Counted from the first letter of the stretch, positions 12,730-43,326 are shown. The stretch is 64,000 nucleotides of DNA from an uncultured Lachnospiraceae bacterium (GCA_934293575.1 CAKQYU010000005.1:46147-110146), one strand, 5' to 3'. The notes: generated by a model from the sequence alone, not told the origin. Numbers and translations: made by a program.

Positions 12730-12769
12730 ACTAAAACCTCCAAGCTAAACATTGTTTGAACAATCATTA

Positions 12770-15972: not shown

Positions 15973-15983
15973 AGGGAGCTGTC

Positions 15984-18777: not shown

Positions 18778-18806
18778 TTTGAAATAAGATTAAAGAGAGG
18801 TCAAAG

Positions 18807-19703
18807 ATGACATCATTTGAAATAGAAGCAGGCGATTATAAACTGACATATAAAATAGGAGAAAACGGCGCAGTTGTTACAGATATAAGAGGAAATGGAA
18901 GTGTGCTGGACATTCCGAAAGAAATTATCTGCAAAGACAAGCCATATTTTATATGTGAAATTGCAAAAAAGGCGGCACTTGCCTGTAAAACATTAAGAGA
19001 TGTAAGGATTCCGGAAACGGTCACGAAAATTGGAGATTGGGCATTTGCGCAATGCGGGCAGCTGGAATGTGTCAGTATTCCTGCCGACATTTTGCTTGGA
19101 GTCGGAGTATTTGAAGGTTGTCAGCATTTGTACCGGATACGGATACAGGGGAAGGATGAGGATACTTTGCCAAGATTGCTTGCCTGCTGTGTTACAGAAT
19201 TTCAAGCGGAAGATTTGATTGGTGACAATGGAGCGGGACAGGATGACTGGTATGAAAAATGGGATCAGAGATTACTTTCTTTTTTGCAGGAGGCCGATGA
19301 GGAAGGCTATCAGACGATGGTTTTGTGCGGAGAGGAGGATATACGAAAGGATATTCCGCAATATGTCATGGAACGTAAGATGGATAAATGTGACCTGTGT
19401 ATGACAAGACTTTTTCATAAGAAGGGTTTGTCAGAGGATATGGAAAATCGGATTACGGAATATATTTTACGGCATATAAAAGGATGTGAACAGGAAGCCG
19501 CATGGGAACTTATGAAAGGGAGATATGGCAATCATTTGGAATACTATGAATTGTTGGCGGATATCGGTGGTATTACAAAGGATAATATTGAAGCCATGAT
19601 AGAAGATCTGGATGAAAAACATGCGGAGGCAAAGGCATATTTAATTCAGTACAAGCAGGGACATTTTGGGGTAGAGGATGTTTTTGCGGGATTTGAGTTG
19701 TAA
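18807..19703 (+). CDS. Hypothetical protein, paralog of the 15160 ORF (shared LRR-like motif)
   Basis: IPETVTKIGDWAFAQCGQLECVSIP parallels LPESILMLEDWCFAHCKNLQTVWMP. Confidence 0.45.
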   Translation: MTSFEIEAGDYKLTYKIGENGAVVTDIRGNGSVLDIPKEIICKDKPYFICEIAKKAALACKTLRDVRIPETVTKIGDWAFAQCGQLECVSIPADILLGVGVFEGCQHLYRIRIQGKDEDTLPRLLACCVTEFQAEDLIGDNGAGQDDWYEKWDQRLLSFLQEADEEGYQTMVLCGEEDIRKDIPQYVMERKMDKCDLCMTRLFHKKGLSEDMENRITEYILRHIKGCEQEAAWELMKGRYGNHLEYYELLADIGGITKDNIEAMIEDLDEKHAEAKAYLIQYKQGHFGVEDVFAGFEL

Positions 19704-22690: not shown

Positions 22691-23170
22691 ATGGAAAAAA
22701 AAGAAAAAGACAGTTATGTTGGAATGTTGTTACAAACCTTGCAAAAGCAGGAGGAGACACTTCGGGAGGTCTTAGCTGTTACCAAGGATCAGTGTAAGCT
22801 TGCAGATTCTGGCAGCTTTGATGAGGATTGCTTTCAGGATACTTTGAACCAGAAGGAAATCCTGATTTCCCGGTTGAATAGTCTGGATGATGGATTTGCT
22901 TCCGTATACGGAAGAGTCCGTAATGTAATTTTGCAGGAAAAGAACAATTACCGGGATGAGATAAGGAGGATGCAGGAGCTTATTAAGAGCTGTACGGATT
23001 TGGGGGTAGAGATTAAGGTATTGGAAGAACGTAACCGGGATAAGCTGGCAAAGTGTTTTTCCCAAAAACATAAAATGTATGGTGCACGCCTTACAGCCGC
23101 AACGGTAGCTTCCAAATATCATCAGACTATGAACTCCGGACAGATTGGTGGCTCTAATTACAAATTATAA
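22691..23170 (+). CDS. Hypothetical flagellar-operon protein (FliT/FlgN-like position)
   Basis: Helical 159-aa ORF immediately after fliS with a good RBS; no definite motif. Confidence 0.4.
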   Translation: MEKKEKDSYVGMLLQTLQKQEETLREVLAVTKDQCKLADSGSFDEDCFQDTLNQKEILISRLNSLDDGFASVYGRVRNVILQEKNNYRDEIRRMQELIKSCTDLGVEIKVLEERNRDKLAKCFSQKHKMYGARLTAATVASKYHQTMNSGQIGGSNYKL

Positions 23171-23270: not shown

Positions 23271-23298
23271 TAAAGTATTATCGGGATATACCGATATA
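23271..23298 (+). promoter_or_regulatory. SigD (sigma-28)-type promoter of flagellin gene 1
   Basis: TAAA-N16-CCGATAT, matching the flagellar sigma-factor consensus. Confidence 0.6.
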
Positions 23299-23441: not shown

Positions 23442-24308
23442 ATGGTAGTACAACACAACATGCAGGCAGCAAATGCAAACAGAATGCTGGGAATGAACGT
23501 TAAGGCAGTAGCTAAGTCTACAGAGAAGTTATCTTCAGGATACAAAGTAAACCGTGCAGCAGATGATGCAGCAGGACTTTCTATTTCTGAGAAGATGAGA
23601 AACCAGATCCGTGGTATCAATCAGGCAGTTTCAAACTCTGAGGACGGTCAGTATTTAATCCAGACAGCTGAAGGAAACTTGAATGAGATTCATTCTATCT
23701 TACAGCGTATGGGTGAGCTTGCTACAAAGGGTGCCAACGAAGTTAATGCAACTGATGACCGTAAGGCTATCGCTGATGAGTTACATCAGTTAGCCTGTGA
23801 GATTGATAGTATCTCAGCTAAGGCTCAGTTCAACGGTAAGTACTTATTAAGCGAGGATAAAAATCCGGATCTTGCAAAAGGATTAGACTTACAGGTTGGT
23901 GCTAATTCAGGAGAGACTATGAACATTAAGTTGCAGAAAATCAACACAGAAGCACTTAAGGTAGATGATCTTAAGGATGATGTAACAGCTGGTGCAGATT
24001 ATGCAAATGGTACATCAACAGGAACAGATAAGTACAGAGATTTGATGACAACTGTAACATCAGCAGTTAAGACTGTATCTGATACTCGTTCACAGCTTGG
24101 TGCTATCCAGAACCGTTTGGATTACACAATCAACAACTTAGAGAACTATTCGGAGAACTTAACATCATCTGAGTCAAATATCCGTGATACAGATATGGCT
24201 AAAGAGATGGTTAACTACTCTAAGAATAACATTCTTCAGCAGGCTGCACAGTCTATGCTTGCACAAGCTAACCAGTCTAACCAGGGCGTATTATCATTAC
24301 TTCAGTAA
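23442..24308 (+). CDS. fliC: Flagellin (short type, 288 aa)
   Basis: MVVQHNMQAANANRML...LSSGYKVNRAADDAAGL N-terminus and QAAQSMLAQANQ...VLSLLQ C-terminus. The ORF-track start at 23382 is an upstream in-frame extension; the RBS aaggagg supports 23442. Confidence 0.9.
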   Translation: MVVQHNMQAANANRMLGMNVKAVAKSTEKLSSGYKVNRAADDAAGLSISEKMRNQIRGINQAVSNSEDGQYLIQTAEGNLNEIHSILQRMGELATKGANEVNATDDRKAIADELHQLACEIDSISAKAQFNGKYLLSEDKNPDLAKGLDLQVGANSGETMNIKLQKINTEALKVDDLKDDVTAGADYANGTSTGTDKYRDLMTTVTSAVKTVSDTRSQLGAIQNRLDYTINNLENYSENLTSSESNIRDTDMAKEMVNYSKNNILQQAAQSMLAQANQSNQGVLSLLQ

Positions 24309-24336
24309 TCTAGTTACTAGATTCGGAAGACAATCA

Positions 24337-24366
24337 GAACCAATCCGTAAGGGTTGGTTCTTTTTG
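24337..24366 (+). terminator. Rho-independent terminator after flagellin 1
   Basis: GAACCAA-N10-TTGGTTC followed by tttttgt. Confidence 0.6.
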
Positions 24367-24394: not shown

Positions 24395-24421
24395 TAAAGT
24401 ATTTAAAAATTCCTCCGATAT
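24395..24421 (+). promoter_or_regulatory. SigD-type promoter of flagellin gene 2
   Basis: TAAA-N16-CCGATAT. Confidence 0.6.
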
Positions 24422-24531: not shown

Positions 24532-25398
24532 ATGGTAGTACAGCACAATATGCAGGCAGCAAATGCAAACAGAATGTTAGGTCAGAATGTAAAGGCAGTA
24601 GCTAAGAACACAGAGAAGTTATCTTCAGGTTATAAAGTAAACCGTGCAGCAGACGATGCAGCAGGACTTTCTATTTCTGAGAAGATGAGAAACCAGATCC
24701 GTGGTATCAATCAGGCAGTTTCAAACTCTGAGGATGGTCAGTATTTAATTCAGACAGCTGAAGGAAACCTGAATGAGATTCACTCTATCTTACAGCGTAT
24801 GGGTGAGCTTGCTACGAAGGGTGCCAATGAAGTTAATGCGACGGATGACCGTAAAGCGATTGCTGATGAGTTACATCAGTTAGCTTGTGAGATTGACAGT
24901 ATCTCAGCAAAGGCACAGTTCAATGGTAAATATTTGTTAAGTGAAGAAAAGAATCCAGATATTGATAATGGTATTGCATTACAGGTTGGTGCAAATGCTG
25001 GTGAATCAATGACAATTCAATTAAAGAAAATTAACACAGAATCACTTAAGGTAGATGATCTTAAGGATGATGTAGCAATTGGTACTGATTACGCAGATGG
25101 TACATCAACAGGAACAGATAAGTACAGAGATTTGATGACAACTGTAACATCAGCAGTTAAGACTGTATCTGATACTCGTTCACAGCTTGGTGCTATCCAG
25201 AACCGTTTGGATTACACAATCAACAACTTGGAGAACTATTCAGAGAACTTAACATCATCTGAATCAAATATCCGTGATACAGATATGGCAACAGAGATGG
25301 TTAACTACTCTAAGAATAATATCTTACAGCAGGCTGCACAGTCTATGCTTGCACAGGCAAATCAGTCAACTCAGGGCGTATTGAACTTATTACAGTAA
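24532..25398 (+). CDS. fliC: Flagellin (tandem paralog, 288 aa)
   Basis: Near-identical to the first copy except for the central ~60 residues. Confidence 0.9.
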   Translation: MVVQHNMQAANANRMLGQNVKAVAKNTEKLSSGYKVNRAADDAAGLSISEKMRNQIRGINQAVSNSEDGQYLIQTAEGNLNEIHSILQRMGELATKGANEVNATDDRKAIADELHQLACEIDSISAKAQFNGKYLLSEEKNPDIDNGIALQVGANAGESMTIQLKKINTESLKVDDLKDDVAIGTDYADGTSTGTDKYRDLMTTVTSAVKTVSDTRSQLGAIQNRLDYTINNLENYSENLTSSESNIRDTDMATEMVNYSKNNILQQAAQSMLAQANQSTQGVLNLLQ

Positions 25399-25578: not shown

Positions 25579-27462
25579 ATGAAAGAAAAAATTCTAAGAG
25601 CAGTTGAATTATTATATCAGTCAAACGTTAAAGAAGCTTATGAAATAATTGCAGCAATGATACAAGATATGGAGGGGATACTAAATGGATTATCCCCACA
25701 AAGCTATCCACAGGTTATAGCAATACTATCGCGTATTATACAGTTGATGAATGACAAAAAAACACTTGAATTGGCACAAACATTACAATTTGATTTTTTA
25801 CCTTTTGTATATGGGGAAGTTATAGATGGTATATCCAGAGAACAGGCAGCGGCAAACGGTTTTGCAGCGCAATATAAAAATGTTGAGGAAGATGCAGTTA
25901 TTGTTGTATTTGGTATATTGAATAAAGAATATATTACAACAATACAAAATAATTGCAACAACAATCTTGTTATTTTCTACCATCCGGGTATATGGGATAT
26001 GGAAGATATGGAAAAGCTTCCTTCTAATGTATATCTTTTAGCGGATTTTGATAAAGATGAAAAATTAAGCGATAAACATAAGTATGACCGAACGGAATTT
26101 CCTTTGGTTTTAAAAGAATGTATAACGGAAGCAAATAAAAATAAAGTATATATTTCAGCATTGCCGGGAAATAAGGAACAGTACAAAGCGGAATATGAGA
26201 CTTTCAAAGAAAAGATTCAATTCCGGTTAGAAATGGTAAGTATTAATTCTTATACTGCAAAAGCATTGGGGCATATAGTTGTTAAGAATAATTTGAATAT
26301 TTTTCCGTTTTTGTTAAATGGTTACTGTATTGATTCATTTGTTGGCAGTTTTCCGGATAATCTGGCGGCAATTATTGTTTCAGCGGGACCGTCATTGCTT
26401 CAAAATGTTGAACAATTAAAAAATATTAAGGGAAAGGCTTTGATTGTATGTGTGGATACAGCTGCTCATACATTGTTAGAACGGGATATCATTCCGGATT
26501 TTATTGTGACAGTTGATCCGAGAAAGGATTTATCCCTTTTTGATGATGTGCGGATAAAAGATATTCCCATTATTGGATCTTCCGATATGAGCTGTAATGT
26601 GCTTTCTAAAATACAGTGCAGAAATCTTATAATGGCAAGTGTAAAGAATCCGTTTATTCAAAAACTTTATGAACGTGAGAAGCATCATGTTGATGAATTA
26701 GAAAGTGGTGGTTCCGTTGCTACCTTTGCATATTCTTTTTGTAAATTTGTTGGGATAAAGAAAATTGTATTTATAGGGCAGGATTTGGCATTGACAGGTA
26801 ATCAGATGTATGCGGGAAAAGAAAAAATAAATATGGATAAGTTTAACAGAGAACTGATTTCTGTAGAGAAATATGGTGGTGGAACAGTTTATACAACAAG
26901 AGATTATTACAGCTATTTAATTTGGTTTGAACAACAGGTGCAAATGAATAAAGATATTGTTCATTTGAATGCAACACAAGGGGGGGCTAGAATCCATGGT
27001 GTTCAAGAGTGTTCACTTGAGGAAGTAATACAAAAGTGGGCAGTTGAAAATATGGATGTGAAAGGATATATCAATCATTCTATGATTCCGGTATTTGATG
27101 ACAAGGAGAAGGCGAAGGATGAAATTTATAATTATGAACAAAGATATTTTGAGATAGGGATTCAGTTAGAACGTGCAGGAAATGCTGCAAAACGGTTACA
27201 AAACAATGGTGTACTCAGTAAAGATGAAAAAAAACAAGCGGAAGATATAATACAGAATACGGTTAAGATGTTTGATGAAAGTACGCAGGCATTTTTGATT
27301 TTGAGGGAAGTGGATGCTACAAATCTGGATGAATATATGGATATATGTTCTACAGAGGTTGAGAAAAATACTTTGGAACATTATCGGTTGTTGGGAAGAT
27401 ATTTTGCATGTTTGTTACGGGCAACAAAAAATATACAAAATATTATTTTGGAGAAAAGATAA
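25579..27462 (+). CDS. Motility-accessory-factor (Maf)-like flagellin glycosyltransferase, MptE-like/DUF115 core
   Basis: Shares a Rossmann-like core with the 30495 ORF (AIIVSAGPSL...DFIVTVDPRKD vs IIVGAGPSL...DYIIITDPKE). The two flank nonulosonic-acid genes beside the flagellins, as Campylobacter maf genes do. Confidence 0.6.
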   Translation: MKEKILRAVELLYQSNVKEAYEIIAAMIQDMEGILNGLSPQSYPQVIAILSRIIQLMNDKKTLELAQTLQFDFLPFVYGEVIDGISREQAAANGFAAQYKNVEEDAVIVVFGILNKEYITTIQNNCNNNLVIFYHPGIWDMEDMEKLPSNVYLLADFDKDEKLSDKHKYDRTEFPLVLKECITEANKNKVYISALPGNKEQYKAEYETFKEKIQFRLEMVSINSYTAKALGHIVVKNNLNIFPFLLNGYCIDSFVGSFPDNLAAIIVSAGPSLLQNVEQLKNIKGKALIVCVDTAAHTLLERDIIPDFIVTVDPRKDLSLFDDVRIKDIPIIGSSDMSCNVLSKIQCRNLIMASVKNPFIQKLYEREKHHVDELESGGSVATFAYSFCKFVGIKKIVFIGQDLALTGNQMYAGKEKINMDKFNRELISVEKYGGGTVYTTRDYYSYLIWFEQQVQMNKDIVHLNATQGGARIHGVQECSLEEVIQKWAVENMDVKGYINHSMIPVFDDKEKAKDEIYNYEQRYFEIGIQLERAGNAAKRLQNNGVLSKDEKKQAEDIIQNTVKMFDESTQAFLILREVDATNLDEYMDICSTEVEKNTLEHYRLLGRYFACLLRATKNIQNIILEKR

Positions 27463-27464
27463 AT

Positions 27465-28160
27465 CTAGTTCATCTGCAAATAATCCTTTGCACGTTTTAA
27501 ATCATCAAAACTATCGATATCAATGGAAACTTCCTTTGACATAATATAAGGGAGACGGTTGTCATTTAAACTGGTTTGTTCGTTAAAATTATCATCGATT
27601 CGATTAATATAAATGGAGCCGTTAACCGTATATACGGCTGGAAAATCCTGACGCCGCACGGTACTTGAAATTGGAAGGATGGATTGTAAATGTCCATCTT
27701 CTTTTATTGTACGCATCAAAATTGGATGTTGTGTTACGGGACATACACTTACCAGAGAATTTTCATCTGAATTAAGCAAAAGTTCAATGGCTTCATCAAT
27801 CCATTGCGGTTGTCGAATGGGTTGAGTAGGTTGTAAAAGAACGACATAATCGTAGTAATCCCCTTGAGCCTTCAAATAGTCTATCGCATGTAACATACAG
27901 TCAATTGTTTTGGATGTATCCATAGAAAGAACGGCAGGTCTTAAAAATGGAGCACTTGCACCATAGGAGATTGCGATATTCTGGATAACGGAAGAATCTG
28001 TGGATACTAAAACATTATCAATATATGTACTTTTCAGTCCGGATTCAATAGAGTATGAAATCAATGGTTTTCCGCATAAATCTATTATATTTTTATTTGG
28101 GATTCCCTTGCTGCCACCTCTTGCGGGAATGATTGCAAGGATACGTTTGTTTTTGTACAT
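27465..28160 (-). CDS. CMP-nonulosonic acid synthetase (acylneuraminate cytidylyltransferase family; NeuA/LegF/PseF-like)
   Basis: ILAIIPARGGSKGIPNKNI N-terminal motif. Confidence 0.8.
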   Translation of the reverse strand: MYKNKRILAIIPARGGSKGIPNKNIIDLCGKPLISYSIESGLKSTYIDNVLVSTDSSVIQNIAISYGASAPFLRPAVLSMDTSKTIDCMLHAIDYLKAQGDYYDYVVLLQPTQPIRQPQWIDEAIELLLNSDENSLVSVCPVTQHPILMRTIKEDGHLQSILPISSTVRRQDFPAVYTVNGSIYINRIDDNFNEQTSLNDNRLPYIMSKEVSIDIDSFDDLKRAKDYLQMN

Positions 28161-28172
28161 TCCTGTTAACCT

Positions 28173-29327
28173 CTATATATCAATATCAATAAAATTCTTT
28201 TGGATGGTTGTATTCCAGATGTAAGAATCCAATAGAATACTTTCAAATATCTTATCACTGTCACCTTTTCCAAAGTAAGATGTCGATTCCAGTTTTTTCT
28301 GCTTTGCCTGTGAAAGAACCTGTGTTGTAAACTGATCTTCATCGATATGTGTAATATGTGTATTTTTGTTTGGGTTATATCTTCCTTTTTGTCTGGAACC
28401 CAAGTCAATAGCCGGAATTCCGTAAATACATGCTTCACGGATACCGGAGCTTGAATTTCCGATAATACAGTCAGAAGATTGAAGCAGCGTTAAAAAATAT
28501 TCAAAACGCATAGATGGAATAATCCGAAAATGATGATTTCCCTGCAATTGATTATAGGTAGCTAATATTTGTTCGCTTCCGGCATCATTATTTGGATAAA
28601 TTACTACAAAATTTTCCTTGGATTCCGTTAAAGTATGAACCAAACATTGAGTGTGATTTGTTATCATATTAAGTTCTGTAGTTACCGGATGATATAATAC
28701 TATATTATAGGAATCAAAAGGCAATTCATAATAATTTTTGACTTCGGATAAAGATGGTAATTTTTTTGAATACATAATGTCTATATCCGGTGAACCGAAA
28801 ATAAAAATATGATCTGCCGGTTCACCAAGCTGGATAATTCTTTTTTTTGCATCTTCGTTTGCAACAAAATGAAAATGCGAAAATTTGCTGATGGCGTGTC
28901 GGATGGATTCATCTATAGTTCCGGAAACTTCGCCGCCCTCAATATGAAATACCCGGATATTATGAAATGCTCCCACAATGGCACCGGCCAAGGCCTCCAA
29001 GCGGTCACCATGGACAACAATAGCATCCGGAGATAATTCATTTATGTAGTTGCTAAAACCGGTAATCGTATTACTAAGTGCAATATCCATATCGGTGGAG
29101 CTGTTTTGATTAACAAATGTATAGATATTAGGAAAACCGTCTTTTATTATTTCTTTATAAGTGGAACCGTATCGTGCCAGCATATGCATTCCGGTAGCAA
29201 AAATATGTACATCAAATTTATCGTTATTATTTAATATGCGAATTAAAGATTTTAATTTTCCGTAGTCTGCCCGGGTTCCGGTTAAAAACACAATTTTTCG
29301 GCGCTGACAGTTATCTTTTGTGCTCAT
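28173..29327 (-). CDS. UDP-N-acetylglucosamine 2-epimerase (hydrolysing), NeuC/LegG-like
   Basis: KIVFLTGTRADYGKL...HIEGGEVSG. Start trimmed to MSTKDN (RBS aaggagaa); the longer track ORF overlaps neuB. Confidence 0.8.
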   Translation of the reverse strand: MSTKDNCQRRKIVFLTGTRADYGKLKSLIRILNNNDKFDVHIFATGMHMLARYGSTYKEIIKDGFPNIYTFVNQNSSTDMDIALSNTITGFSNYINELSPDAIVVHGDRLEALAGAIVGAFHNIRVFHIEGGEVSGTIDESIRHAISKFSHFHFVANEDAKKRIIQLGEPADHIFIFGSPDIDIMYSKKLPSLSEVKNYYELPFDSYNIVLYHPVTTELNMITNHTQCLVHTLTESKENFVVIYPNNDAGSEQILATYNQLQGNHHFRIIPSMRFEYFLTLLQSSDCIIGNSSSGIREACIYGIPAIDLGSRQKGRYNPNKNTHITHIDEDQFTTQVLSQAKQKKLESTSYFGKGDSDKIFESILLDSYIWNTTIQKNFIDIDI

Positions 29328-29341
29328 TTGATTCTCCTTAT

Positions 29342-30373
29342 TTATAATGATACATCCTGCATGGTAAGGTGTTCGCCTTTTGGGATATCCCGTCTGGCAA
29401 TTTGTCCAAGGCATTGATTAAAATATTCGGCTTTTATCTGTCCGGTTCCGGGACGTTTTACCCAAATGTTATCCTTAGAAAAAGGTTCACCCTTTTTGAT
29501 GTCTTTTATTGTAACGACTGTTGCAAAAGCAAAATCAATGGTTACCTGTTCTTCCGGCAATGCCTGTTTGCTTCCTCCGCGCATTAAGAAGATTTCTTTT
29601 GAATCATGGATAAGGGAAGATAAAGCAACGGTGTCCATGGAACAGATGATATCAGGTCCCTCTCTGTACATACTATCCGTAAAATGCCGTTCTAAAAGGC
29701 TTGCGCCTAAGGCTGTAGCAGCGAGGCAGGCATTATTGTTCAAACTGTGGTCGGATAATCCGATTGGTATACCCGGAAATTGTTCCATAAGTTCTTTCAT
29801 GGCTCCAAGTCGGATGTATTCCGGTTTGGTTGGATAAATGTTTGTACAGTGCATAAGTGCATAATCAATATGATATTTTTCTAAAATAGTAACTGTTTTT
29901 TTGATACTTGCGATATCGTTCATACCCGTAGAGACAATCATCGGTTTACCAAACTGAGCGATATGTTCAATTAACGGATAGTTGTTACATTCGCCGGAAC
30001 CGATTTTATAGGCGGAAACATTCATACGTTCCAATCGGTCGGCAGCTGCTCTGGAAAAAGGAGTACTTAAAAAAATCATACCTTTTGATTCAACGTAGTT
30101 TTTTAATTGACATTCTTCTTCCTCTGACAGCGCACAACGAGCCATAATATCATAAATGGAAACATCTGCGTTGCCGGGTATTACATTTTTGGCAGCCGGA
30201 GACATTTCGTCTTCTACGACATGCGTTTGGTGTTTGATAATCTCTGCGCCTGCATTTTTTGCAGCGTCTACCATTTCAAAAGCGGTTTGTAATGAACCTT
30301 CATGATTAATTCCTATTTCTGCAATAACAAGAGGTGGAAATTCCGGTCCGATTTTACGATTTTCAATCTGCAT
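29342..30373 (-). CDS. N-acylneuraminate-9-phosphate/nonulosonic acid synthase (NeuB/LegI/PseI-like) with C-terminal SAF domain
   Basis: [16 protein letters not shown]-terminus, TIM-barrel motifs; C-terminal antifreeze-like domain (VKRPGTGQI...). Confidence 0.85.
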
Positions 30374-30494
30374 AAAGAGTCCTCTTTTCCTTTAACTTAC
30401 AATGATTATACAATGCCGGGTATGCAAAAGCAAATAGATTTATCGGGGGTGCTATGCTATAATATTTTAGAAATATTTTAGAAATGGAGATTGT

Positions 30495-32168
30495 ATGAAA
30501 CACATTTATGATGAAAATAAAATTCTGATACAACAGGTATATCAGATGAAAGAGTATATTAATAAACAGGAGAATGTAAGAATTTTATGGTTGATTACAC
30601 AACTGGCACAACGTATTGCCAAATTACTTACGGAAGTAATTGAAAAACGCGATGCTTTTGCACAATTGGGAATGGAAATAAATGAGGAATATATTTTTTC
30701 TGTTTTAAATCAGATGCTTGGTGCACAGGAGGCAGAAGATTATATTTTATACGGAGATATTTTACAACTTCAGATGTTGCCGATTCTTTTGGAAATACAA
30801 AATGCGATTCAGAGTAGTTGTGAGGACTTAACGGAATCTTTTTGGGATCAAAATATGGATGCTTTAAAAAAGAATGATGTTGAATTGTATGAGCAGATGT
30901 TAAATTGTGAAGCATTGCATGCAAAATCTCCTTATTGTAATGATGTATATTCAATTGAAAATACAAATGTTGGGGCATTGACCTTGGCGGTTGATAATGG
31001 GGAATATCGGATTTATCTGCATAGCAATGAAAATCCAATGGATTCAGCCAGACAATTGATAGATGCGTATTACGATCCGTATAAGAATGATTACGTGATA
31101 TATGGGTTAGGTCTTTGCTATCATTGTAGATATCTTGCATCGCTGGATTATGATTTGGATATTACAATTATAGAAAATGATATTGGAATTTTGCAACTTG
31201 CTATGAACTATATGGATATGAGCTGGTATTTTAACCATCCGGGTGTAAAGATAATTTATGATGGGGATTGGAAAAAATGGGGAACAATTTTGAAGGAGCG
31301 AGAAGATGCAGTTGTTTTACTTCATCAACCATCTGTGAGACGGATTAAAAATCAGGAGATTCAGCAGCAAATTCAGAAATTCATGGTGCATGAGGGTTCA
31401 ATGCGGGCAAGAAGTAACCGGATGATACGGAATTTCCTTTATAATACAAAGCATTGTGAATTAGATATCACTGCCTTGCAACAGGACTTCCGAGGAAAGA
31501 ACGTGATTATTGTGGGAGCGGGACCTTCCCTGGATTTGAATGTGCAGCTGTTGAAGGAGAAAAAGGAAAATACCATTATTCTGGCGATGGGAGCCGTTTG
31601 CCGTAAATTATATAATCTGGGTATTCCTATGGATTATATTATTATTACAGATCCGAAAGAGATATCCAACGGACAGATTGCCGGTCTGGAACACCTTGAG
31701 ATACCGATGATTTTAATGTCTACTGCAACAAAAGGTGTGGCAAGATATTATCACGGAAAAAAATATCTGCTTTGTCAAAAAGGGTTTCCGGATGCCGAGC
31801 AGCTGGCAACTAAGAAGAATCTTCCGTTATTTGAAACCGGCGGTTCTGTGGCAACCACGGCTGTTGATATGTGTATCCGGTTTGATGTAAATAAAATTAT
31901 CTTTGTGGGAATGGATCTGGCATACACCGATAACAAAAACCATGCGTCCGGAGCCAGGGATGAGGGGATTACGGATTATTCCGGCATGATTATGGTAGAG
32001 GATGTATATGGAAAAGAGGTTCCAACCACAAGGCCGTTTTTGATGTACCGGGAATGGATTGAACGGCGGATTGCAAGGAAGGATGTTACGATGCCTGTAA
32101 TTGATGCCACAGAAGGCGGCGCACGGATTCAGGGCAGTGAAGTAAGAAAGCTTTCGGATGTGTTATGA
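30495..32168 (+). CDS. Maf-like flagellin glycosyltransferase, second paralog
   Basis: DUF115-like core GKNVIIVGAGPSLD...DYIIITDPKE...ETGGSVATTAVD; paralog of the 25579 ORF. Confidence 0.6.
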   Translation: MKHIYDENKILIQQVYQMKEYINKQENVRILWLITQLAQRIAKLLTEVIEKRDAFAQLGMEINEEYIFSVLNQMLGAQEAEDYILYGDILQLQMLPILLEIQNAIQSSCEDLTESFWDQNMDALKKNDVELYEQMLNCEALHAKSPYCNDVYSIENTNVGALTLAVDNGEYRIYLHSNENPMDSARQLIDAYYDPYKNDYVIYGLGLCYHCRYLASLDYDLDITIIENDIGILQLAMNYMDMSWYFNHPGVKIIYDGDWKKWGTILKEREDAVVLLHQPSVRRIKNQEIQQQIQKFMVHEGSMRARSNRMIRNFLYNTKHCELDITALQQDFRGKNVIIVGAGPSLDLNVQLLKEKKENTIILAMGAVCRKLYNLGIPMDYIIITDPKEISNGQIAGLEHLEIPMILMSTATKGVARYYHGKKYLLCQKGFPDAEQLATKKNLPLFETGGSVATTAVDMCIRFDVNKIIFVGMDLAYTDNKNHASGARDEGITDYSGMIMVEDVYGKEVPTTRPFLMYREWIERRIARKDVTMPVIDATEGGARIQGSEVRKLSDVL

Positions 32169-32294
32169 GGGGGATTACCGATAATACATAAATGATGATA
32201 TAAGTATAAAGATTATTGCAAGAGTTACCGATACTAGTAGTGCAAGGATGCTGGAAATGTTTAAAGGATGTAAGGATCTAATATAGATATTTGA

Positions 32295-32329
32295 AAGCCA
32301 TATTTGCAACGGAATATGGCTTTTGTTTT
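32295..32329 (+). terminator. Rho-independent terminator after the maf paralog; may also act as a leader attenuator of the next gene
   Basis: AAGCCATATT-tgcaacgg-AATATGGCTT followed by ttgtttt. Confidence 0.5.
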
Positions 32330-32354
32330 ATATTGTTACAACAGGGAGAAGACG

Positions 32355-33347
32355 ATGATTCGTATTAGACAGGCAGAGTATGAAGATATACCGCTTATTA
32401 TGAAATTTATAGATGAGCACTGGAAGAAGGATCATATTTTTGCAAGGGATAGGAAATTTTTTGAATGGCAGTTTGTTGAAAATGGAAAAGTAAATTTTTA
32501 TTTAGGAATTGATGAGGAACAAAAAAAGATTTATGGTGTGTTAGGAGTGATTCTGTATAATCATAGCGAACATCCTGATATATCGGGAACCATATGGAAA
32601 ACGATTAAAAGTGATAATCCAATATTAGGTATTGAGATAGATCGTTATATGTTTTATGCTTTACAAACAAGGTATGCCTGCTCAGCCGGCATAAGTGAAA
32701 AGGCAAAAAGAATTTATCAGATGATGGGGCATAAAATTGTTTTGATGGATCATTTTTATCGGTTGGGTGACTTTAATGAGTATAAAATTGCTAAAATAAA
32801 AAACAAGAAGATTCCACAAATAGAAAATACAGATTATGAATTAAGAAAAATTTTTTCTCTGAGTGAAATGAAAGCAATTATATCCGAGGAAAATTTAAAA
32901 AATAGTGTTATGAGCAAGGATTATGATTATATTGAAAAAAGATATTTTGAACACCCCATTTATAATTATGATATTTGGAAAATCCAAAACTCAAAACGGA
33001 TAGGAGAAGCTGTATTGGTTACTAGAGAGGAGCAGGTCGCAAACAGTAAAATATGTAAAATTATAGACTATTACGGAGATGCAAAATTGTTAGGAAAAAT
33101 AACCCCTGCACTTGATCGATTGATAATGGAAAAATCATATGAGTATGTTGATGTTTATTCTTACGGAGTAGATAGACAGATATACGAGCAGGCAGGATTT
33201 ATTTCCGTGGAGGAAAATGATGAGAATATTATCCCCAATTATTTTCATCCCTTTGAGAAAAAAAATGTTTTTCTGAATATGCTTGATCCCCAAATTGCTG
33301 GTCTTCGTTTATTTCGAGGAGATGGGGATCAGGATAGACCGTGTTAA
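32355..33347 (+). CDS. Acetyltransferase-like protein (GNAT-like N-terminal region plus a second domain), putative
   Basis: IRIRQAEYEDIPLIMKFI resembles a GNAT start; RBS gggagaag. Weak, motif-level only. Confidence 0.35.
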   Translation: MIRIRQAEYEDIPLIMKFIDEHWKKDHIFARDRKFFEWQFVENGKVNFYLGIDEEQKKIYGVLGVILYNHSEHPDISGTIWKTIKSDNPILGIEIDRYMFYALQTRYACSAGISEKAKRIYQMMGHKIVLMDHFYRLGDFNEYKIAKIKNKKIPQIENTDYELRKIFSLSEMKAIISEENLKNSVMSKDYDYIEKRYFEHPIYNYDIWKIQNSKRIGEAVLVTREEQVANSKICKIIDYYGDAKLLGKITPALDRLIMEKSYEYVDVYSYGVDRQIYEQAGFISVEENDENIIPNYFHPFEKKNVFLNMLDPQIAGLRLFRGDGDQDRPC

Positions 33348-33373
33348 TATAAAGAGTTATAAAGGATGAGAAA

Positions 33374-34099
33374 ATGAAATATTATTTAGTAACAGGTGCC
33401 TCTTCCGGTATTGGAAGAGAAGTTGCAAAACAAATATCAAATGAAGATACAACTGTTGTCTTAGTAGCAAGAAGAGAAGATAAATTAAAGGAGTTACAAT
33501 TAGAATTAATGGGACCCTCCGTTGTAATACCTTGTGATTTGCGGCGGAGTGTGGATATAAAAAATGTTTTTGATGAATTGAGTAAGAAAAAAATAAAACT
33601 TGATGGTTTGGTGTATTGTGCCGGAATATGTTTTGTAAAACCAATTAAAATTATGGAAGAAAATGAATTGCAGGATATGTTTCAGATTAATGTATTTGCT
33701 TTTTACGAAATGTGTAGGTATTTTTCGCAGGTTAGTGTTTCTAACAAAGGTGCCTGTATTGTTGGTGTTTCATCTTATGCAGCGGTTTCTAAAGAAGCTG
33801 GGATGTCTGCATATGCCATGACGAAAGAATCTATGAATGTCCAAACACAGGTTTTGGCACAGGAATTTTTAAAAAGAAAAATCAGAATAAACACTGTAAT
33901 GCCGGCACATGTTATGTCAAAGATGGCAGAGGATGAAAATACATGGACTGAGGAAGAATTAGAGATTGTAAAATGTAAACAACCATTGGGAATTATACCA
34001 ATCGATAATGTTGTCAAGGTTATAAAGTTTTTGTTATCAAGGGATGCCCAATATATTACTGGTCAGTCTATTTCGATAAATGCAGGTTATATAAAGTAG
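33374..34099 (+). CDS. SDR-family oxidoreductase (ketoacyl-ACP reductase-like)
   Basis: TGASSGIGREVAK Rossmann motif, NVFAF, S..AY....K catalytic pattern. Confidence 0.8.
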   Translation: MKYYLVTGASSGIGREVAKQISNEDTTVVLVARREDKLKELQLELMGPSVVIPCDLRRSVDIKNVFDELSKKKIKLDGLVYCAGICFVKPIKIMEENELQDMFQINVFAFYEMCRYFSQVSVSNKGACIVGVSSYAAVSKEAGMSAYAMTKESMNVQTQVLAQEFLKRKIRINTVMPAHVMSKMAEDENTWTEEELEIVKCKQPLGIIPIDNVVKVIKFLLSRDAQYITGQSISINAGYIK

Positions 34100-34113
34100 A
34101 GGGGTGTTAGACA

Positions 34114-35766
34114 ATGAAGGGTACGTTTAATAATGTAAAAATCGAAGGTGTTGCATCGGCAGTTCCTTGTTATGTGATGGACAATATGGATTATGTTGAT
34201 TTGTTTGGTAAGAGGAGAGTAACAAAACAAATCAAGATGACAGGTGTTCGAAAACATCATATGTCATTAAGGTATCAAAAAACATCTGATTTATGCATAC
34301 GAGCAGCTAGAGATCTAATTAGGCATTTGGAGTGGGAAAAAAATGAAATAAAAATATTGGTTTTTTGTACGCAATCCGCAGATTATGAAATTCCAACAAC
34401 TGCCATTGATTTGGCGGAACGATTGGGACTGGGTCATGATTGCATGGCTTTTGATATAAATATAGGCTGTTCAGCTTTTGATTTGGGGATTCAAACTGTA
34501 GGAAGTTTGTTACAAAGTCAGCCGGATGGAACAAAGGCAATTTTATTGACTGGTGATGTATCGAGCGCCCTGCAAGGTGGAGATGTTTTAAAGAAAGAGG
34601 ATATCATTAATTCCATGATGTTTGGTTCGGCAGGTTCGGCGGTTGCTATTAAAAAGGAATCAGGGCATCAGATAGTTTTTCAGAATTTTAGTGATGGTTC
34701 TGGTTGGGATGCAATTTTAAGATATCGTCGTTCAAAGACAAAAATGCAAGGAAACCGGGTTTTTGAATTTGCAATTTATGATGTGGCAGAGCATGTGATG
34801 AATTTGAAAGAATCACTTCAGGTTGAGGATAGGGATATTGACTATTATTGTTTTAATCAGTCTCAGAAATTAATCTTGGAATGTTTGGTGGATACTTGTG
34901 GCTTGAATGGAGAAAAGGTTCTTTATTCCTATGAGGAATATGGAAACACATCTGGAGCATCCATTCCGGTTACGTTATGCCATAACAGGAATAAATTCCT
35001 AAATAAAGAGTCTATAAATATTTGCAGCTGCGGTTTTGGCGTTGGATTATCCTGTGGTATTTCTGTATTTCAGATTAATCCTAAGAATATTTTACCAATC
35101 ATTGAAACGGATGAGCATTTTGATGAACATATCAAGCATTGTAGTTTTCTAGACGAAAGATATGCTCTTTTGATGGATACATCTTCAGACATAGGACAGT
35201 TGATTGGAAGACAATTGGATCGGGATGGTTGTAATCTTGGTTTGTTTGGAGATACAAAGAGTGCTGCTGCTTTAACGGAGCAATTTTTTTGGAAGGATTG
35301 TGAAGTCTACGAAAGGGATGATTTAAAATCCATTGTGTCGCGTGGAGTCCAATATCATGCAGTCGTTTATAATTTAAACTGCATAGAAAAGGAGAAAATC
35401 CAAAAAGAGGTTTTGTATTTATATCAAAATCAGACACTACAGAACAATGCGGTTATTATTTTAATTTCGGAGGCTTGCGAAGAGGCTGATCTGAGGCTGT
35501 TTTTACAGAATTTAGAAGAACAATGCGACTATGGAATTCGGGCTAATGCAGTTCTTTATATTCGTGAAAGTATGGATTTATATCCTGATATTGGGGATCG
35601 TATGGATTGGGTAGAAAGAAAACTGGCGATGCTGGATTCACAGAATATGGATCGCCCATTTTATTTGACAAATGTTGTGGCGAGATTAGTGTCGTCAAAG
35701 TTTGCTGGAGTTTCACAGTCGGTTATTCATATTTCGGATGGCAACATAAATATGAGAGACTGTTAA
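34114..35766 (+). CDS. KASIII (FabH)-like protein no. 1 with a C-terminal degenerate Rossmann/SDR-like extension
   Basis: DINIGCSAFDLG (active-site Cys), FNQSQ in place of the HQAN His motif, and EYGNTSGASIP (Asn). The last ~200 aa include LLMDTSSDIGQLIG, reminiscent of VTGASSGIG. Confidence 0.65.
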   Translation: MKGTFNNVKIEGVASAVPCYVMDNMDYVDLFGKRRVTKQIKMTGVRKHHMSLRYQKTSDLCIRAARDLIRHLEWEKNEIKILVFCTQSADYEIPTTAIDLAERLGLGHDCMAFDINIGCSAFDLGIQTVGSLLQSQPDGTKAILLTGDVSSALQGGDVLKKEDIINSMMFGSAGSAVAIKKESGHQIVFQNFSDGSGWDAILRYRRSKTKMQGNRVFEFAIYDVAEHVMNLKESLQVEDRDIDYYCFNQSQKLILECLVDTCGLNGEKVLYSYEEYGNTSGASIPVTLCHNRNKFLNKESINICSCGFGVGLSCGISVFQINPKNILPIIETDEHFDEHIKHCSFLDERYALLMDTSSDIGQLIGRQLDRDGCNLGLFGDTKSAAALTEQFFWKDCEVYERDDLKSIVSRGVQYHAVVYNLNCIEKEKIQKEVLYLYQNQTLQNNAVIILISEACEEADLRLFLQNLEEQCDYGIRANAVLYIRESMDLYPDIGDRMDWVERKLAMLDSQNMDRPFYLTNVVARLVSSKFAGVSQSVIHISDGNINMRDC

Positions 35767-35796
35767 AAGATATATTTTATTATGGAGGATAAGATT

Positions 35797-36018
35797 ATGA
35801 CATTACAAGAGAAAATCGAAATGTTAGAGGAAGTTATGGATGTTGAAGAAGGAGAATTAAGTGAAGAGATGGTACTAAACGAGATTGAAGAATGGGATTC
35901 GTTAAGTACACTTTCATTAACCGTTGAAATGAAAAAAAGATTTGGAATGAATCTTACAGAGGAACAGATAAAAAACTTTCATACGGTGGGAGATATTTGT
36001 AATTATATTCCGGATTGA
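35797..36018 (+). CDS. Acyl carrier protein (subfamily A, 1 of 3)
   Basis: 74-aa acidic helical protein with an EEWDSLSTLSL phosphopantetheine-attachment motif. Start set 7 nt after ggagga. Confidence 0.7.
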   Translation: MTLQEKIEMLEEVMDVEEGELSEEMVLNEIEEWDSLSTLSLTVEMKKRFGMNLTEEQIKNFHTVGDICNYIPD

Positions 36019-36062
36019 GAAAAGATTACTTTGAAAATTTTGGTGAGGTGTTAATAAGTACT

Positions 36063-37067
36063 ATGTACGGAGAATATCATAATATTAAAATCTGTGGTAT
36101 TGCTGCTGCAGTTCCAAAGAATACAATTGATAATGAGATATATGCAGAAAAATTAGGAAACCGACGTGCAAAAAAACAGGTATTATATACTGGAATTCGT
36201 CATCGTCATTGCGTAGAACAGGGGCAGTCTGCCTCTGATTTGAGTTGCTACTCAGCAGAGAAATTGTTAAGTGAATTGCATTGGAATCGAGATGAAATTC
36301 GTGTTTTGGTGAATGTAACACAATCTGCTGATTTGTATACGCCCTCTACAGCTATGATTATACAAAAACGTTTGGGTATTGGTCAGGATTGTATTGCATT
36401 TGATGTAAATTTAGGGTGTACAGGGTATGTAAGTGGACTACAAATTGTAGCAGCTTTGCTACAGAATACTGGTGGAAAAGGTCTTCTTTTGGTTGGAGAT
36501 GGAAGATATCATGAAATGCCGGAAGTTCCGACTACTGATTCTTTGCTGTTTGGAGATGGAGGTGCAGCAACGGCAATAGAATTAGAGGAAAACCATACAA
36601 TGCAGTATTCTCAAAAAACAGATGGTAATAGATATAATTTGTTATATACTGCGTTAGACGGAACTATGAAAATGGATGGAAATGCTGTTCTTCTTTTTTC
36701 CTTAAACGAGGTATGTGAAAGTATAAGGGAGTTTCGTGAGTATTTTCAAGTACGGGAAACTTCAATTGATTATTATATTCTGCATCAGGCACAAAAAATG
36801 ATCTTAGATGGTATTGCAAGAGAATGTAATATAGAAGCAGAAAAAATACCGCAATCTTATGAGGAATATGGAAATACATCAACGGCATCGATTCCAATAA
36901 CAATATGTAGTAATATAGAGGAAATAAGAAAAAAGCATCATGCCAGATTATTCTTATGTGGATTTGGAATTGGTTTGGCATGGTCAAATGTGGTTGTTGA
37001 CTTGGATACAACATGTATTTATCCGCTTCTAGAGACAGATTTTTGTTATAAGGATTTAGGAGAATAA
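36063..37067 (+). CDS. KASIII (FabH)-like protein no. 2 (canonical Cys-His-Asn)
   Basis: DVNLGCTGY, LHQAQKM, EEYGNTSTASIP. Start set at MYGEYHNIKICG by analogy with FabH N-termini; the track's TTG at 36015 is possible. Confidence 0.7.
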   Translation: MYGEYHNIKICGIAAAVPKNTIDNEIYAEKLGNRRAKKQVLYTGIRHRHCVEQGQSASDLSCYSAEKLLSELHWNRDEIRVLVNVTQSADLYTPSTAMIIQKRLGIGQDCIAFDVNLGCTGYVSGLQIVAALLQNTGGKGLLLVGDGRYHEMPEVPTTDSLLFGDGGAATAIELEENHTMQYSQKTDGNRYNLLYTALDGTMKMDGNAVLLFSLNEVCESIREFREYFQVRETSIDYYILHQAQKMILDGIARECNIEAEKIPQSYEEYGNTSTASIPITICSNIEEIRKKHHARLFLCGFGIGLAWSNVVVDLDTTCIYPLLETDFCYKDLGE

Positions 37068-37203
37068 TAAAGGATGAGTTAAGGGTAAAAATGAGATTGC
37101 AAATTGGAAACCGAATGGTTTATACAAATCTGTAAATTTTTTACAACATGCATTAGACGAATGTATTAAAAAAATCTAATAAAAAGATATGGAGGAATAA
37201 GAT

Positions 37204-37425
37204 ATGACGAGAGAAGAAAAAATGGAAGTGATTGCAGATATTTTAGAAATTGAGGTAAGTGATTTATCGGAGGATAAAATTTTAGAGGATTATGATACAT
37301 GGGATTCGGTTGCAGTGTTATCTGTAATTGCATTTATGAACGAGCAGTATAATCGTTTCCCACATGCATCTGAGATTCGAGCTTATAAAACAGTAGGGGA
37401 TTTAATGAATTATATGACTGAATAG
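37204..37425 (+). CDS. Acyl carrier protein (subfamily A, 2 of 3)
   Basis: DTWDSVAVLSV motif; paralog of the 35797 ORF. Confidence 0.7.
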   Translation: MTREEKMEVIADILEIEVSDLSEDKILEDYDTWDSVAVLSVIAFMNEQYNRFPHASEIRAYKTVGDLMNYMTE

Positions 37426-37465
37426 AGGCTATGTAGATATAATCAGTAAGAAAGAGAAGGAGCAT

Positions 37466-38203
37466 ATGGACAATTTTTTAAAACTTGGCGGTAAACGGGT
37501 TTTAGTAACCGGGGCTTCATCTGGGATTGGAAAAGCAACTGCAATTGCCTTGAGTGAACAAGGCGCAAATGTAATCATTATCGGACGTCGGGAAAATGAA
37601 TTAAATAATACCTATCAACAACTGTATGGAGATGGGCATGTTATGATTGTTGCAGATTTAACGGAGTTTGATCGATATACAGAGATATTTAAGCTTGCGA
37701 CTCAGCAAGGAAAATTAGATGGTTTAGTACATTGTGCAGGATTAGCAAAGCCTGTTCCTGCAAAAATGGTTTCTGAAAAATTGATAAAAGAGACATTTGA
37801 CGTAAATTTTGTGGCGTTTATGGAATTAGTTAAACATTTTATTAAACGAAAGAATTCTGAAAGAGGAAGTATTGTTGCTGTATCTTCTTATTTGGCAAAT
37901 AGGCCGCATATGTGCATGAGTATATATGCAGCTTCAAAGGGTGCCTTAGATAGTGCGGTAAAGTCCCTGGCATATGAATTCCTGGACAAGAATTATCGTG
38001 TAAATACGGTGGTCCCAGGATGGGTGGAAACACCGATGGTAACAGATTCTGCCAAAGTGTATGAAACAAATGTTGTGGAAGAACCTTCGTTGGGGGTTGC
38101 ACAGCCGTCGGATATTGCAAATGCAATTTTATTTTTAATAAGCGATGTTTCAAGATATGTAACCGGACGTAGTTATTATGTTGATGGAGGAAGGCTAACA
38201 TAA
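37466..38203 (+). CDS. SDR-family oxidoreductase (second copy)
   Basis: TGASSGIGKATA, NVIIIGRR, S..YAASK catalytic motif. Confidence 0.8.
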   Translation: MDNFLKLGGKRVLVTGASSGIGKATAIALSEQGANVIIIGRRENELNNTYQQLYGDGHVMIVADLTEFDRYTEIFKLATQQGKLDGLVHCAGLAKPVPAKMVSEKLIKETFDVNFVAFMELVKHFIKRKNSERGSIVAVSSYLANRPHMCMSIYAASKGALDSAVKSLAYEFLDKNYRVNTVVPGWVETPMVTDSAKVYETNVVEEPSLGVAQPSDIANAILFLISDVSRYVTGRSYYVDGGRLT

Positions 38204-38215
38204 GATAGGGGAAAT

Positions 38216-39022
38216 ATGAATATTCAGGAAGTAAAAATTGTTATAACCGATTTAAAAAGAAAGTATGGAAAACTATATTCTAATATTATTTGGCCCGATC
38301 TTACCTTACATGAAATCGTTGAAACTTATGAAGGTGAAAAAGGACTGGTTCTTGTGGTTGCTGAGGAGAATCGTAATAAGATTTTTTATGCGGTCACAGA
38401 TATTTCAATATTAAAAGAATTATTAATGCAAATTCAGAGAACAGCAGTTTTGGAGTATCACTACAAGGACATAAATGATATGGATGATGTGTTCCTTGTG
38501 GCCGGATTAATTCATTACGCAAATTATATTCGAGTAACCTCAACCTATTTGGAAAAACCATGTTGGGGAGGATCGAAACGACAAGATATGTTAAATGAAT
38601 TATATAACCCAGATTGTGGGGAATATCCCGTTCTTGAAGATGTGGAGGAGTTAGATCAATTAACAAGAACAAGCTTTGATCCTCTAATTGATGATGTTTT
38701 TTCTTTAGAAGAATGGAAAAATATTATACAGAATAAAGAATGCTTTGTAATAAAAGAAAATGGAAAAATAGTTACTTATTATGTGTGGCGGAGGGAAGGA
38801 AAAAAATTATATAGTAATATGTCATTGAATCTTGGACCTGCCAACTATATGTATAATTTGGAACGAAGGGTATTTGAAACAATGTGGAATGAAGGCATTC
38901 GAACGTTTTATGCATGGTATAATGAAGAAAATACCCGGGCTATAAAGCGAGGTATTTTTCCGGAATGTGCAAGAAATAACTGTATACATGATGCTATTTA
39001 TATAAATAAAAAGAGTGAATAA
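38216..39022 (+). CDS. Hypothetical protein inside the acyl cassette (possible acyltransferase)
   Basis: ORF with RBS; no clear motif. Confidence 0.35.
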   Translation: MNIQEVKIVITDLKRKYGKLYSNIIWPDLTLHEIVETYEGEKGLVLVVAEENRNKIFYAVTDISILKELLMQIQRTAVLEYHYKDINDMDDVFLVAGLIHYANYIRVTSTYLEKPCWGGSKRQDMLNELYNPDCGEYPVLEDVEELDQLTRTSFDPLIDDVFSLEEWKNIIQNKECFVIKENGKIVTYYVWRREGKKLYSNMSLNLGPANYMYNLERRVFETMWNEGIRTFYAWYNEENTRAIKRGIFPECARNNCIHDAIYINKKSE

Positions 39023-39040
39023 GAGAAAAGAGGGTTTAAG

Positions 39041-39259: not shown

Positions 39260-39311
39260 TATATAATTGACTCTGACAAGATTATATATGAAATGTAAGG
39301 AGAGGATATAG

Positions 39312-40835: not shown

Positions 40836-40873
40836 ATAGATGACTTTGTTTATAGTATGACAGGAGGATTAAA

Positions 40874-42045: not shown

Positions 42046-42053
42046 GGTGTGTT

Positions 42054-43082: not shown

Positions 43083-43093
43083 GGAGAATAAGA

Positions 43094-43324: not shown

Positions 43325-43326
43325 TT

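Follow-up and report, generated by a model that had tools for sequence, protein, structure and literature searches.

A three-gene sialic acid cassette between two Maf genes as a candidate for native flagellin sialylation in a human-gut Lachnospiraceae bacterium

Background

Do three genes wedged between two flagellin glycosyltransferase genes represent the tail end of a longer nonulosonic acid (NulO) pathway, or a complete pathway of another kind? This question is raised by a flagellar locus of an uncultured Lachnospiraceae bacterium from the human gut (GC content ~35%), which lies within a 64,000-nucleotide stretch of DNA (GCA_934293575.1 CAKQYU010000005.1:46147-110146), analyzed here as a whole and hereafter called the window. 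In the locus, neuA, neuC, and neuB, all on the minus strand, sit between maf1 and maf2, both on the plus strand, and proteins identical to those of the window are found on many gut-metagenome contigs. The original prediction, made from the sequence, had placed a neuA/neuC/neuB-like trio between two Maf paralogs, and Pfam matches supported all five genes at the following positions (lengths in amino acids, aa):

25579-27462, plus strand: maf1 (PF01973, 3.8e-35)
27465-28160, minus strand: neuA-like CMP-nonulosonate synthetase, 231 aa, without an esterase domain (PF02348)
28173-29327, minus strand: neuC-like hydrolysing UDP-N-acetylglucosamine (UDP-GlcNAc) 2-epimerase, 384 aa (PF02350, 9e-71)
29342-30373, minus strand: neuB-like N-acetylneuraminate synthase, 343 aa (PF03102 and SAF, 3e-70)
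30495-32168, plus strand: maf2 (PF01973, 1.4e-36)

The 413-aa open reading frame (ORF) that can be drawn for neuC (28173-29414) is over-extended, the gene calls on identical metagenome contigs being 384 aa. Beyond the layout, the trio had been regarded as the last three steps of a legionaminic acid (Leg) or pseudaminic acid (Pse) pathway whose early enzymes are missing, and three ways out had been offered: a sugar of the neuraminic acid (Neu) type, early steps encoded elsewhere, or a downstream deacetylase/GNAT/acyl cassette that supplies the N-substituent chemistry. The evidence presented below favors the first of these and points to the two Maf proteins as the enzymes that would place the sugar on flagellin.

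Results

Completeness of the pathway

Pfam models were applied to most of the ORFs of at least 100 aa in the window, and the called genes in the 10 kb past each end of the window were also inspected, covering ~84 kb overall. By Pfam, the 64-kb window contained no DegT aminotransferase, no 4,6-dehydratase of the extended short-chain dehydrogenase/reductase (SDR) type, and no hexapeptide (LbH) N-acetyltransferase, and no NTP-transferase was found among the ORFs searched. Early Leg genes and the marker PtmE/LegX were absent both from the window and from the called genes beyond its two ends, and PseB, PseC, and PseG were absent from the window. The downstream SDRs were considered as dehydratases and rejected, as they are classical FabG-like proteins of 241-245 aa with weak Polysacc_synt_2/Epimerase matches. 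The claim that no dehydratase, aminotransferase, or N-acetyltransferase is encoded nearby held for enzymes of the Leg/Pse type and not for acyltransferases at large, GNAT-type members of which are encoded downstream (44601-45401 and 32355-33347).

The premise of an incomplete Leg or Pse pathway was, by contrast, mistaken. NeuC, NeuB, and NeuA make up the entire bacterial route from UDP-GlcNAc to CMP-N-acetylneuraminic acid (CMP-Neu5Ac), and the dehydratase, aminotransferase, and N-acetyltransferase are required only for the 5,7-diamino-tetradeoxy sugars Leg and Pse. Because NeuC, NeuB, and NeuA alone suffice for CMP-Neu5Ac, the set is not incomplete, and the trio corresponds to the full canonical pathway, which needs no early enzymes. 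The three-enzyme route is restated by De Maayer and Cowan. The presence of NeuC excludes the Pse and 2-keto-3-deoxynonulosonic acid (Kdn) routes; the Pse pathway makes no use of this enzyme, and the window synthase scores 232 bits against the PseI model, for which the cutoff is 340. The set is probably a true sialic acid pathway, and the real question becomes whether its genes are of the Neu or of the Leg type.

Substrate of the synthase

As judged by sequence comparison, the strongest single argument for N-acetylmannosamine (ManNAc) as the substrate is the match between the active site of the window NeuB and that of a proven Neu5Ac synthase. The window NeuB aligned with Neisseria meningitidis NeuB/SiaC (nmNeuB) at 458 bits and 61.9% identity over 341 residues, compared with 170 bits for Bacillus subtilis SpsE, an enzyme assigned to the legionaminic acid pathway in the title of PMC7439481, and 142 bits for the PseI structure; its score against TIGR03569 was 389, just below the cutoff of 399.65. 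Halsør et al. (PMC7371886) modelled three Campylobacter jejuni synthases on nmNeuB and reported that Neu-pathway synthases strictly conserve the active-site residues whereas the Leg and Pse enzymes differ, assigning the C4-C6 specificity to nmNeuB positions 70-85 and finding at position 184 Tyr in Leg enzymes, Ser in Pse enzymes, and either Asn or Tyr in Neu enzymes. All 17 positions checked in the window NeuB were those of nmNeuB (E25, K53, Q55, T110, K129, G131, S132, E134, C182, N184, Y186, S213, H215, H236, D247, F288, and R314), and the segment corresponding to nmNeuB 70-85 was identical at 14 of its 16 residues, where SpsE reads KTAAG-KDVSIFSLV. With an overall identity of 62% to the N. 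meningitidis enzyme and an identical active site, a Neu-type flagellin sugar is the favored alternative.

NeuC and NeuA are, on their scores, less decisive than NeuB in separating Neu from Leg. NeuC exceeded the cutoff of TIGR03568 (406.6 against 235.9 bits), a model that covers LegG too, and gave 51 bits against N. meningitidis SiaA, which is to say that it is not Neisseria-like. NeuA carries a CTP_transf_3 domain, and among solved structures it is closest to CMP-Neu5Ac synthetases (6ifd, 137 bits; 1eyr, 109 bits).

Flagellins and Maf proteins

A run of flaG, fliD, fliS, and a FlgN-like ORF leads into the two flagellin genes and maf1, with the following features:

23271-23296, plus strand: sigmaD/FliA-like promoter, TAAA-N16-CCGATA, upstream of flagellin A (pattern search)
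23442-24308, plus strand: flagellin A, 288 aa, D0/D1 only, presumed acceptor (Flagellin_N and Flagellin_C)
24336-24361: terminator-like hairpin after flagellin A
24395-24420, plus strand: sigmaD/FliA-like promoter, upstream of flagellin B (pattern search)
24532-25398, plus strand: flagellin B, 288 aa, presumed acceptor (Pfam)

The promoter pattern matched twice in the window, once ahead of each flagellin gene; as this count is at chance level (16 of 100 shuffles reach two), the argument for these promoters is one of position and not of match number. Flagellins A and B are 93% identical, their differences clustering at residues 139-190, and because of this identity a division of labor with one Maf per flagellin is unlikely. 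The idea that two Mafs reflect two transfer specificities consequently survives in part: different acceptor sites are plausible and have a precedent in Shewanella, whereas different sugars for the two flagellin copies make a weak case.

Both Mafs, encoded beside flagellin and NulO biosynthesis genes, exceed the PF01973 cutoff, and they share 32% identity over a 224-residue glycosyltransferase (GT) domain. They differ in build, Maf1 having a 260-aa N-terminal region, a GT domain at residues 263-484, and a 140-aa C-terminal extension, and Maf2 a 335-aa N-terminal region, which includes the Maf N-domain, followed by a GT domain (336-557) that ends the protein with no C-terminal domain. The residues that do not vary among 21 Mafs (GPSL, an Asp, a Ser, GxDL, and GGA) are kept in both, those of Maf1 including GPSL at 270-273, D313, S379, G400, and GGA, and since these family-invariant residues are kept both proteins are probably active. 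The published catalytic residues of the M. magneticum Maf are Asp324 and Glu415. An AlphaFold2 model of Maf2 (pLDDT 91.8) found its best fold match in that protein (5MU5, E 5.8e-16), which was not reached by Maf1 in a phmmer search against the PDB.

The Maf2 model opens with four long helices over residues 2-106 (30495-30815; pLDDT >90), and this predicted N-terminal four-helix bundle, which recalls the flagellin-binding modules of the Shewanella Mafs (the four-helix GlfM and the TPR), may play the role of GlfM, or be a fused specificity factor. No separate GlfM gene was found here, the gene after maf2 encoding a tandem-GNAT protein, and no tetratricopeptide repeat (TPR) domain was matched in Maf1 by Pfam even at E up to 1. 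A FlgN-like ORF of 159 aa (22691-23170) was considered as GlfM and rejected, since a similar FlgN-like ORF of 161 aa occupies the same place in a locus that lacks Maf. An extended -10 element, TGCTATAAT, lies ahead of maf2 at ~30441-30449. The neu cassette is divergent from maf2, and maf1 and neuA are convergent with 2 bp between their stop codons (27462-27465), leaving no space for a terminator.

The pairing of a Maf1-type with a Maf2-type protein is kept in related Lachnospiraceae (loci L007, L008, L010, L011, and L012 of the comparison set described below), where the Maf2 orthologues are 36-80% identical to that of the window. A sister metagenome-assembled genome (MAG; L007, 12907-14799) has a Maf1 of 62%, a Maf2 of 80%, and a NeuB of 91% identity, with flanking DNA at 92-96%; by these values Maf1 is fast-evolving, and its gene resembles a hotspot of local divergence or of allelic replacement.

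Recurrence of the minimal set

A NeuB scan of species-representative genomes yielded 80 loci at 66-91% identity in Lachnospiraceae, Bacilli, Flavobacteriia, and Campylobacterota, and ORF clustering covered 87 loci, among them 20 Maf loci (14 distinct). Of the 87, 79 had NeuC and 75 had NeuA along with NeuB, and the NeuB-NeuC-NeuA cassette recurred across the 14 distinct Maf loci. Within 10 kb, a DegT or LbH gene was found in none of the 20 Maf loci (14 distinct), and the seven NeuB-clade loci (of 87) that matched the DegT profile all lacked Maf. By Pfam, no early Leg genes were found among the neighbors in Psychrobacillus (L018), L012, and L011, where the adjoining genes include those for rhamnose and ribitol, GT2 glycosyltransferases, methyltransferases, and LicD, among others. 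That independent lineages repeatedly carry this minimal set is an argument for the sufficiency of the three genes.

In the cultured Lachnospiraceae Wansuia hejianensis (L029) the island is bracketed by flagellar genes on both sides, and its annotated genes are Maf, NeuB, NeuC, NeuA, a pyruvyl-transferase-family gene, and a short second Maf, alongside two small unannotated ORFs. The polysaccharide pyruvyl-transferase-family gene (PF04230 in L029, 12913-14085) also lies directly 3' of neuA in L019, L022, L036, and L074, and beside neuA in L024. In L011 an octopine/nopaline-dehydrogenase-family gene (12230-13336) stands between neuC and neuA, and the island also carries LicD, a class-V aminotransferase, a sulfatase-family TPR protein, and methyltransferases. 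Within the NeuB clade (L007-L086) the synthases are 66-75% identical between Lachnospiraceae, Flavobacteriia, Campylobacterota, and Bacilli, an unusually high conservation across phyla, and NeuC at ~50% and NeuA at 30-60% diverge faster; these identities suggest a cassette that has spread horizontally and a synthase under strong constraint. A blastn search of the neuBCA cassette against Escherichia coli genomes returned only a 107-bp pseF match, which is uninformative for O-antigen relatives of either the Neu or the Leg type.

The downstream acyl-carrier cassette

A terminator-like hairpin (32292-32325) separates maf2 from the genes that follow:

32355-33347, plus strand: tandem-GNAT-fold protein, 330 aa, no Pfam family, candidate N-acyltransferase (AlphaFold2, pLDDT 89)
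33374-44391, plus strand: acyl-carrier assembly cassette (Pfam and ORF list)
44601-45401, plus strand: GNAT, 266 aa (Pfam)
45431-46384, plus strand: CE4 polysaccharide deacetylase (Pfam)
46408-47088, plus strand: metallo-beta-lactamase-fold hydrolase (Pfam)

The tandem-GNAT model matched Eis2, N-myristoyltransferase, and MAB_4324 by Foldseek (E ~1e-9, TM ~0.5), and its family has ~339 members, all unnamed. The assembly cassette comprises two FabG-like SDRs, five KASIII-like proteins (one of them a 550-aa fusion), an AMP-dependent ligase (39312-40835), a 268-aa protein of unknown family, and five ORFs of acyl carrier protein (ACP) size with DSL-type motifs (35782, 37204, 39041, 40874, and 43094). 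At E up to 1, Pfam gave nothing usable for the 330-, 268-, and 352-aa ORFs, the C-terminal half of the KASIII fusion, or the Maf extensions.

CE4 homologues adjoin NeuBCA in ten other loci across phyla (L043, L058, L031, L041, L063, L081, L014, L059, L020, and L023), the gene lying between neuA and neuB in L043 and L058, and this recurrence hints at de-N-acetylated or de-O-acetylated sialic acids. In a strain of the same species (L002, 1-8202) whose flanks are 99.15% identical, homology ends exactly at the maf2 stop codon, and window positions 32172-47088 are replaced by a different version of the cassette that includes an Antibiotic_NAT-family gene; because homology breaks at this codon, the decoration module is one that is swapped as a block within the species. 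A module of tandem-GNAT, ACP, SDR, KASIII, and AMP-ligase genes was also seen in a Lachnospiraceae flagellar locus without NulO genes or Maf (L087, 1-20993; also L088 and L089). The L087 module is the L002-like version, tandem-GNAT gene included, and its locus encodes two LicD proteins, a PEP-mutase/cytidylyltransferase fusion, a class-V aminotransferase, and a TPP enzyme, a gene content that suggests flagellin modification with an acylated group of the aminoethylphosphonate type.

We infer that the module N-acylates an amine on a flagellin modification, which in the window would be neuraminic acid, or a mannosamine (ManN) precursor, after de-N-acetylation. The cassette is tied to the sugar because CE4 recurs beside NeuBCA, because the block swap falls at the maf2 stop codon, and because the same module accompanies another amine-bearing head group. 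The third of the original alternatives, a downstream cassette that supplies the N-substituent chemistry, is accordingly plausible as decoration by N-acyl exchange, whereas such a cassette cannot replace a dehydratase and an aminotransferase.

Flanking genes

Directly upstream of flaG (15160-19703) are two BspA-type LRR_5 proteins, a DUF2201 VWA-like/metallopeptidase protein, and a MoxR-like AAA ATPase. The island is closed by the 352-aa ORF (50157-51215), which stands beside a minus-strand GT2 gene (48963-50018) and a Fic protein (47270-48352). No Pfam match was obtained for this ORF or for those of 849 aa (8407-10956) and 215 aa (55720-56367).

Discussion

We consider that the locus probably encodes native O-sialylation of flagellin by two Mafs, with probable re-acylation of the sugar by a strain-variable cassette, and place the probability of this reading at roughly 0.6. 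NeuC would hydrolyse and epimerise UDP-GlcNAc to ManNAc, NeuB would condense ManNAc with phosphoenolpyruvate (PEP) to Neu5Ac, and NeuA would activate the product with CTP. The two Mafs would then O-link Neu5Ac or an N-reacylated derivative to flagellin Ser/Thr residues in the cytoplasm before export, each probably serving different acceptor sites by means of its own extra domain, and the downstream cassette would probably swap or add an acyl group on the sugar amine. A fuller version of the proposal, in which abundant human-gut Lachnospiraceae carry native O-linked neuraminic acid, the CE4 enzyme removes its N-5 acetyl group, an ACP-built acyl group that differs between strains replaces it, and the same module is reused in other species on an aminoethylphosphonate head group of flagellin, is more speculative and less likely than not.

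Several points weigh against native sialylation, and many of them favor the chief alternative, namely that the three genes are legG, legI, and legF and that the sugar is a Leg derivative whose precursor, UDP- or GDP-2,4-diacetamido-bacillosamine, comes from a dehydratase, aminotransferase, and acetyltransferase whose genes lie elsewhere, for instance in a cell-wall polysaccharide locus. Every Maf donor characterized in its native setting is a derivative of Pse or Leg, and no native flagellin has been seen to carry Neu5Ac. Pathway genes can be dispersed, as the Leg genes of B. subvibrioides are spread over three loci and the PseC of C. beijerinckii is encoded outside its island. A phylogeny of 13,941 sequences could not cleanly separate NeuB from LegI; the same study groups the Neisseria, Campylobacter, and Flavobacterium synthases together, a grouping that matches the relatives found here for the window NeuB. 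Among PDB entries NeuC was nearly equidistant from the human GNE epimerase domain (209 bits) and Acinetobacter baumannii LegG (200 bits), and the best NCBIfam match of NeuA was PseF at 171 bits, below the cutoff of 205.7. The Geobacillus island, formerly labelled sialic-acid type, has since been reinterpreted as Leg: its synthase, encoded next to Maf, behaves as LegI and its locus holds LegX (Kint et al., preprint), and for these reasons the precedent is probably a Leg system. Lastly, the acylation step is read from fold and neighborhood only.

Set against the Leg alternative are the active site, C4-C6 segment, and Asn184 of the window NeuB, all of which are those of proven Neu5Ac synthases, and the score of only 170 bits for Leg-type SpsE. 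Neither an early Leg gene nor LegX was found in the ~84 kb inspected or in the 14 distinct loci that combine Maf with NeuBCA; the Geobacillus island, by contrast, has arnA-like, degT, and ntp genes among its neu genes. On this balance we judge a Leg-type sugar unlikely.

A less probable account still is that plain Neu5Ac decorates the flagellin and that the acyl-carrier cassette is unrelated to the sugar, either acylating flagellin directly or making a separate lipid or polyketide-like product. The hairpin between maf2 and the cassette, the swapping of the cassette as a block with its breakpoint at the maf2 stop codon, and its occurrence in a flagellar locus without NulO genes all fit such independence. 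Yet the module has always been seen in a flagellin-modification island beside an amine-yielding pathway (Neu or aminoethylphosphonate), the tandem-GNAT fold suits N-acylation of a small amine, and CE4 stands beside NeuBCA in the ten other loci. That the CMP-sialic acid instead serves another surface glycan, such as a capsule or wall polysaccharide, while the Mafs use a different donor is highly improbable, for although most loci of the NeuB clade, as in Flavobacteriia, are polysaccharide loci without Maf and a GT2 gene lies at 48963-50018, the cassette here directly follows the flagellins and sits tightly between two maf genes, running toward maf1 with a 2-bp gap and away from maf2, with no other nucleotide-sugar pathway in the island and the same arrangement conserved in related species.

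If flagellin sialylation is borne out, a gut commensal would be the first natural case in which Ser/Thr residues are directly O-sialylated with true Neu5Ac, a modification that has been shown only in engineered E. coli. It would place a sugar identical to that of the host on flagellin, a major innate-immune ligand, with a bearing on Siglec and TLR5 recognition of commensal flagella, and with a re-acylated Neu the TLR5 ligand would bear sialic acid of a new class (Neu5-acyl). Strains of the species may also differ in their surfaces, as the variable acyl cassette suggests. A cultured relative, W. hejianensis NSJ-26, shares the minimal island.

Comparison with known systems

The system is a variant of the Maf-type flagellin glycosylation island and not a new kind. 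Its three biosynthetic enzymes belong to the same families as those of the canonical CMP-Neu5Ac pathways of N. meningitidis (SiaA/SiaC/SiaB), C. jejuni (NeuC1/NeuB1/NeuA1), and E. coli K1 (NeuC/NeuB/NeuA); in those systems sialyltransferases pass the sugar to capsule or lipooligosaccharide, whereas here the cassette lies between Maf flagellin glycosyltransferases.

The two divergent Mafs flanking NulO genes, and a sugar further substituted by locus-encoded enzymes, recall Shewanella oneidensis, in which Maf-1 and Maf-2/GlfM flank the NulO genes, the Mafs modify different serines of the same flagellin, and the sugar bears an extra substituent of 236-264 Da (Unay et al. 2023; Bubendorfer et al. 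2013). The donor there is a Pse derivative, Maf-2 needs the separate four-helix GlfM, and Maf-1 has a C-terminal TPR, whereas in the window no GlfM gene was found, Maf2 has a predicted four-helix bundle of its own, and no TPR was detected in Maf1. The flagellar hypervariable regions of Clostridium (Twine 2008; Anderson et al. 2026) are likewise islands by fliD and flagellin with multiple Mafs that are <40% identical to each other and with strain-level variation. Those islands encode PseB/C/H/G/I/F or LegB/C/H/G/I/F, whereas the window encodes the last three, Neu-type steps together with an ACP/KASIII cassette.

A parallel for the proposed transfer is the GkMaf island of Geobacillus, also a Gram-positive flagellar island with maf beside neu-like genes. 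Khairnar et al. (2020), reasoning from its gene neighborhood, predicted that GkMaf sialylates flagellin and demonstrated Ser/Thr-O-Neu5Ac in engineered E. coli, remarking that no natural example of protein O-sialylation had been seen; such heterologous transfer of Neu5Ac by a Maf to Ser/Thr of flagellin supports the reading of the locus as a sialylation island. This type I flagellin glycosylation island, described by De Maayer and Cowan (2016), also carries neuD, and arnA-like epimerase, degT, and ntp genes are scattered among its neu genes. The window has none of these four and has a Neisseria-type NeuB instead, which makes its locus a cleaner Neu-type candidate than the Geobacillus island.

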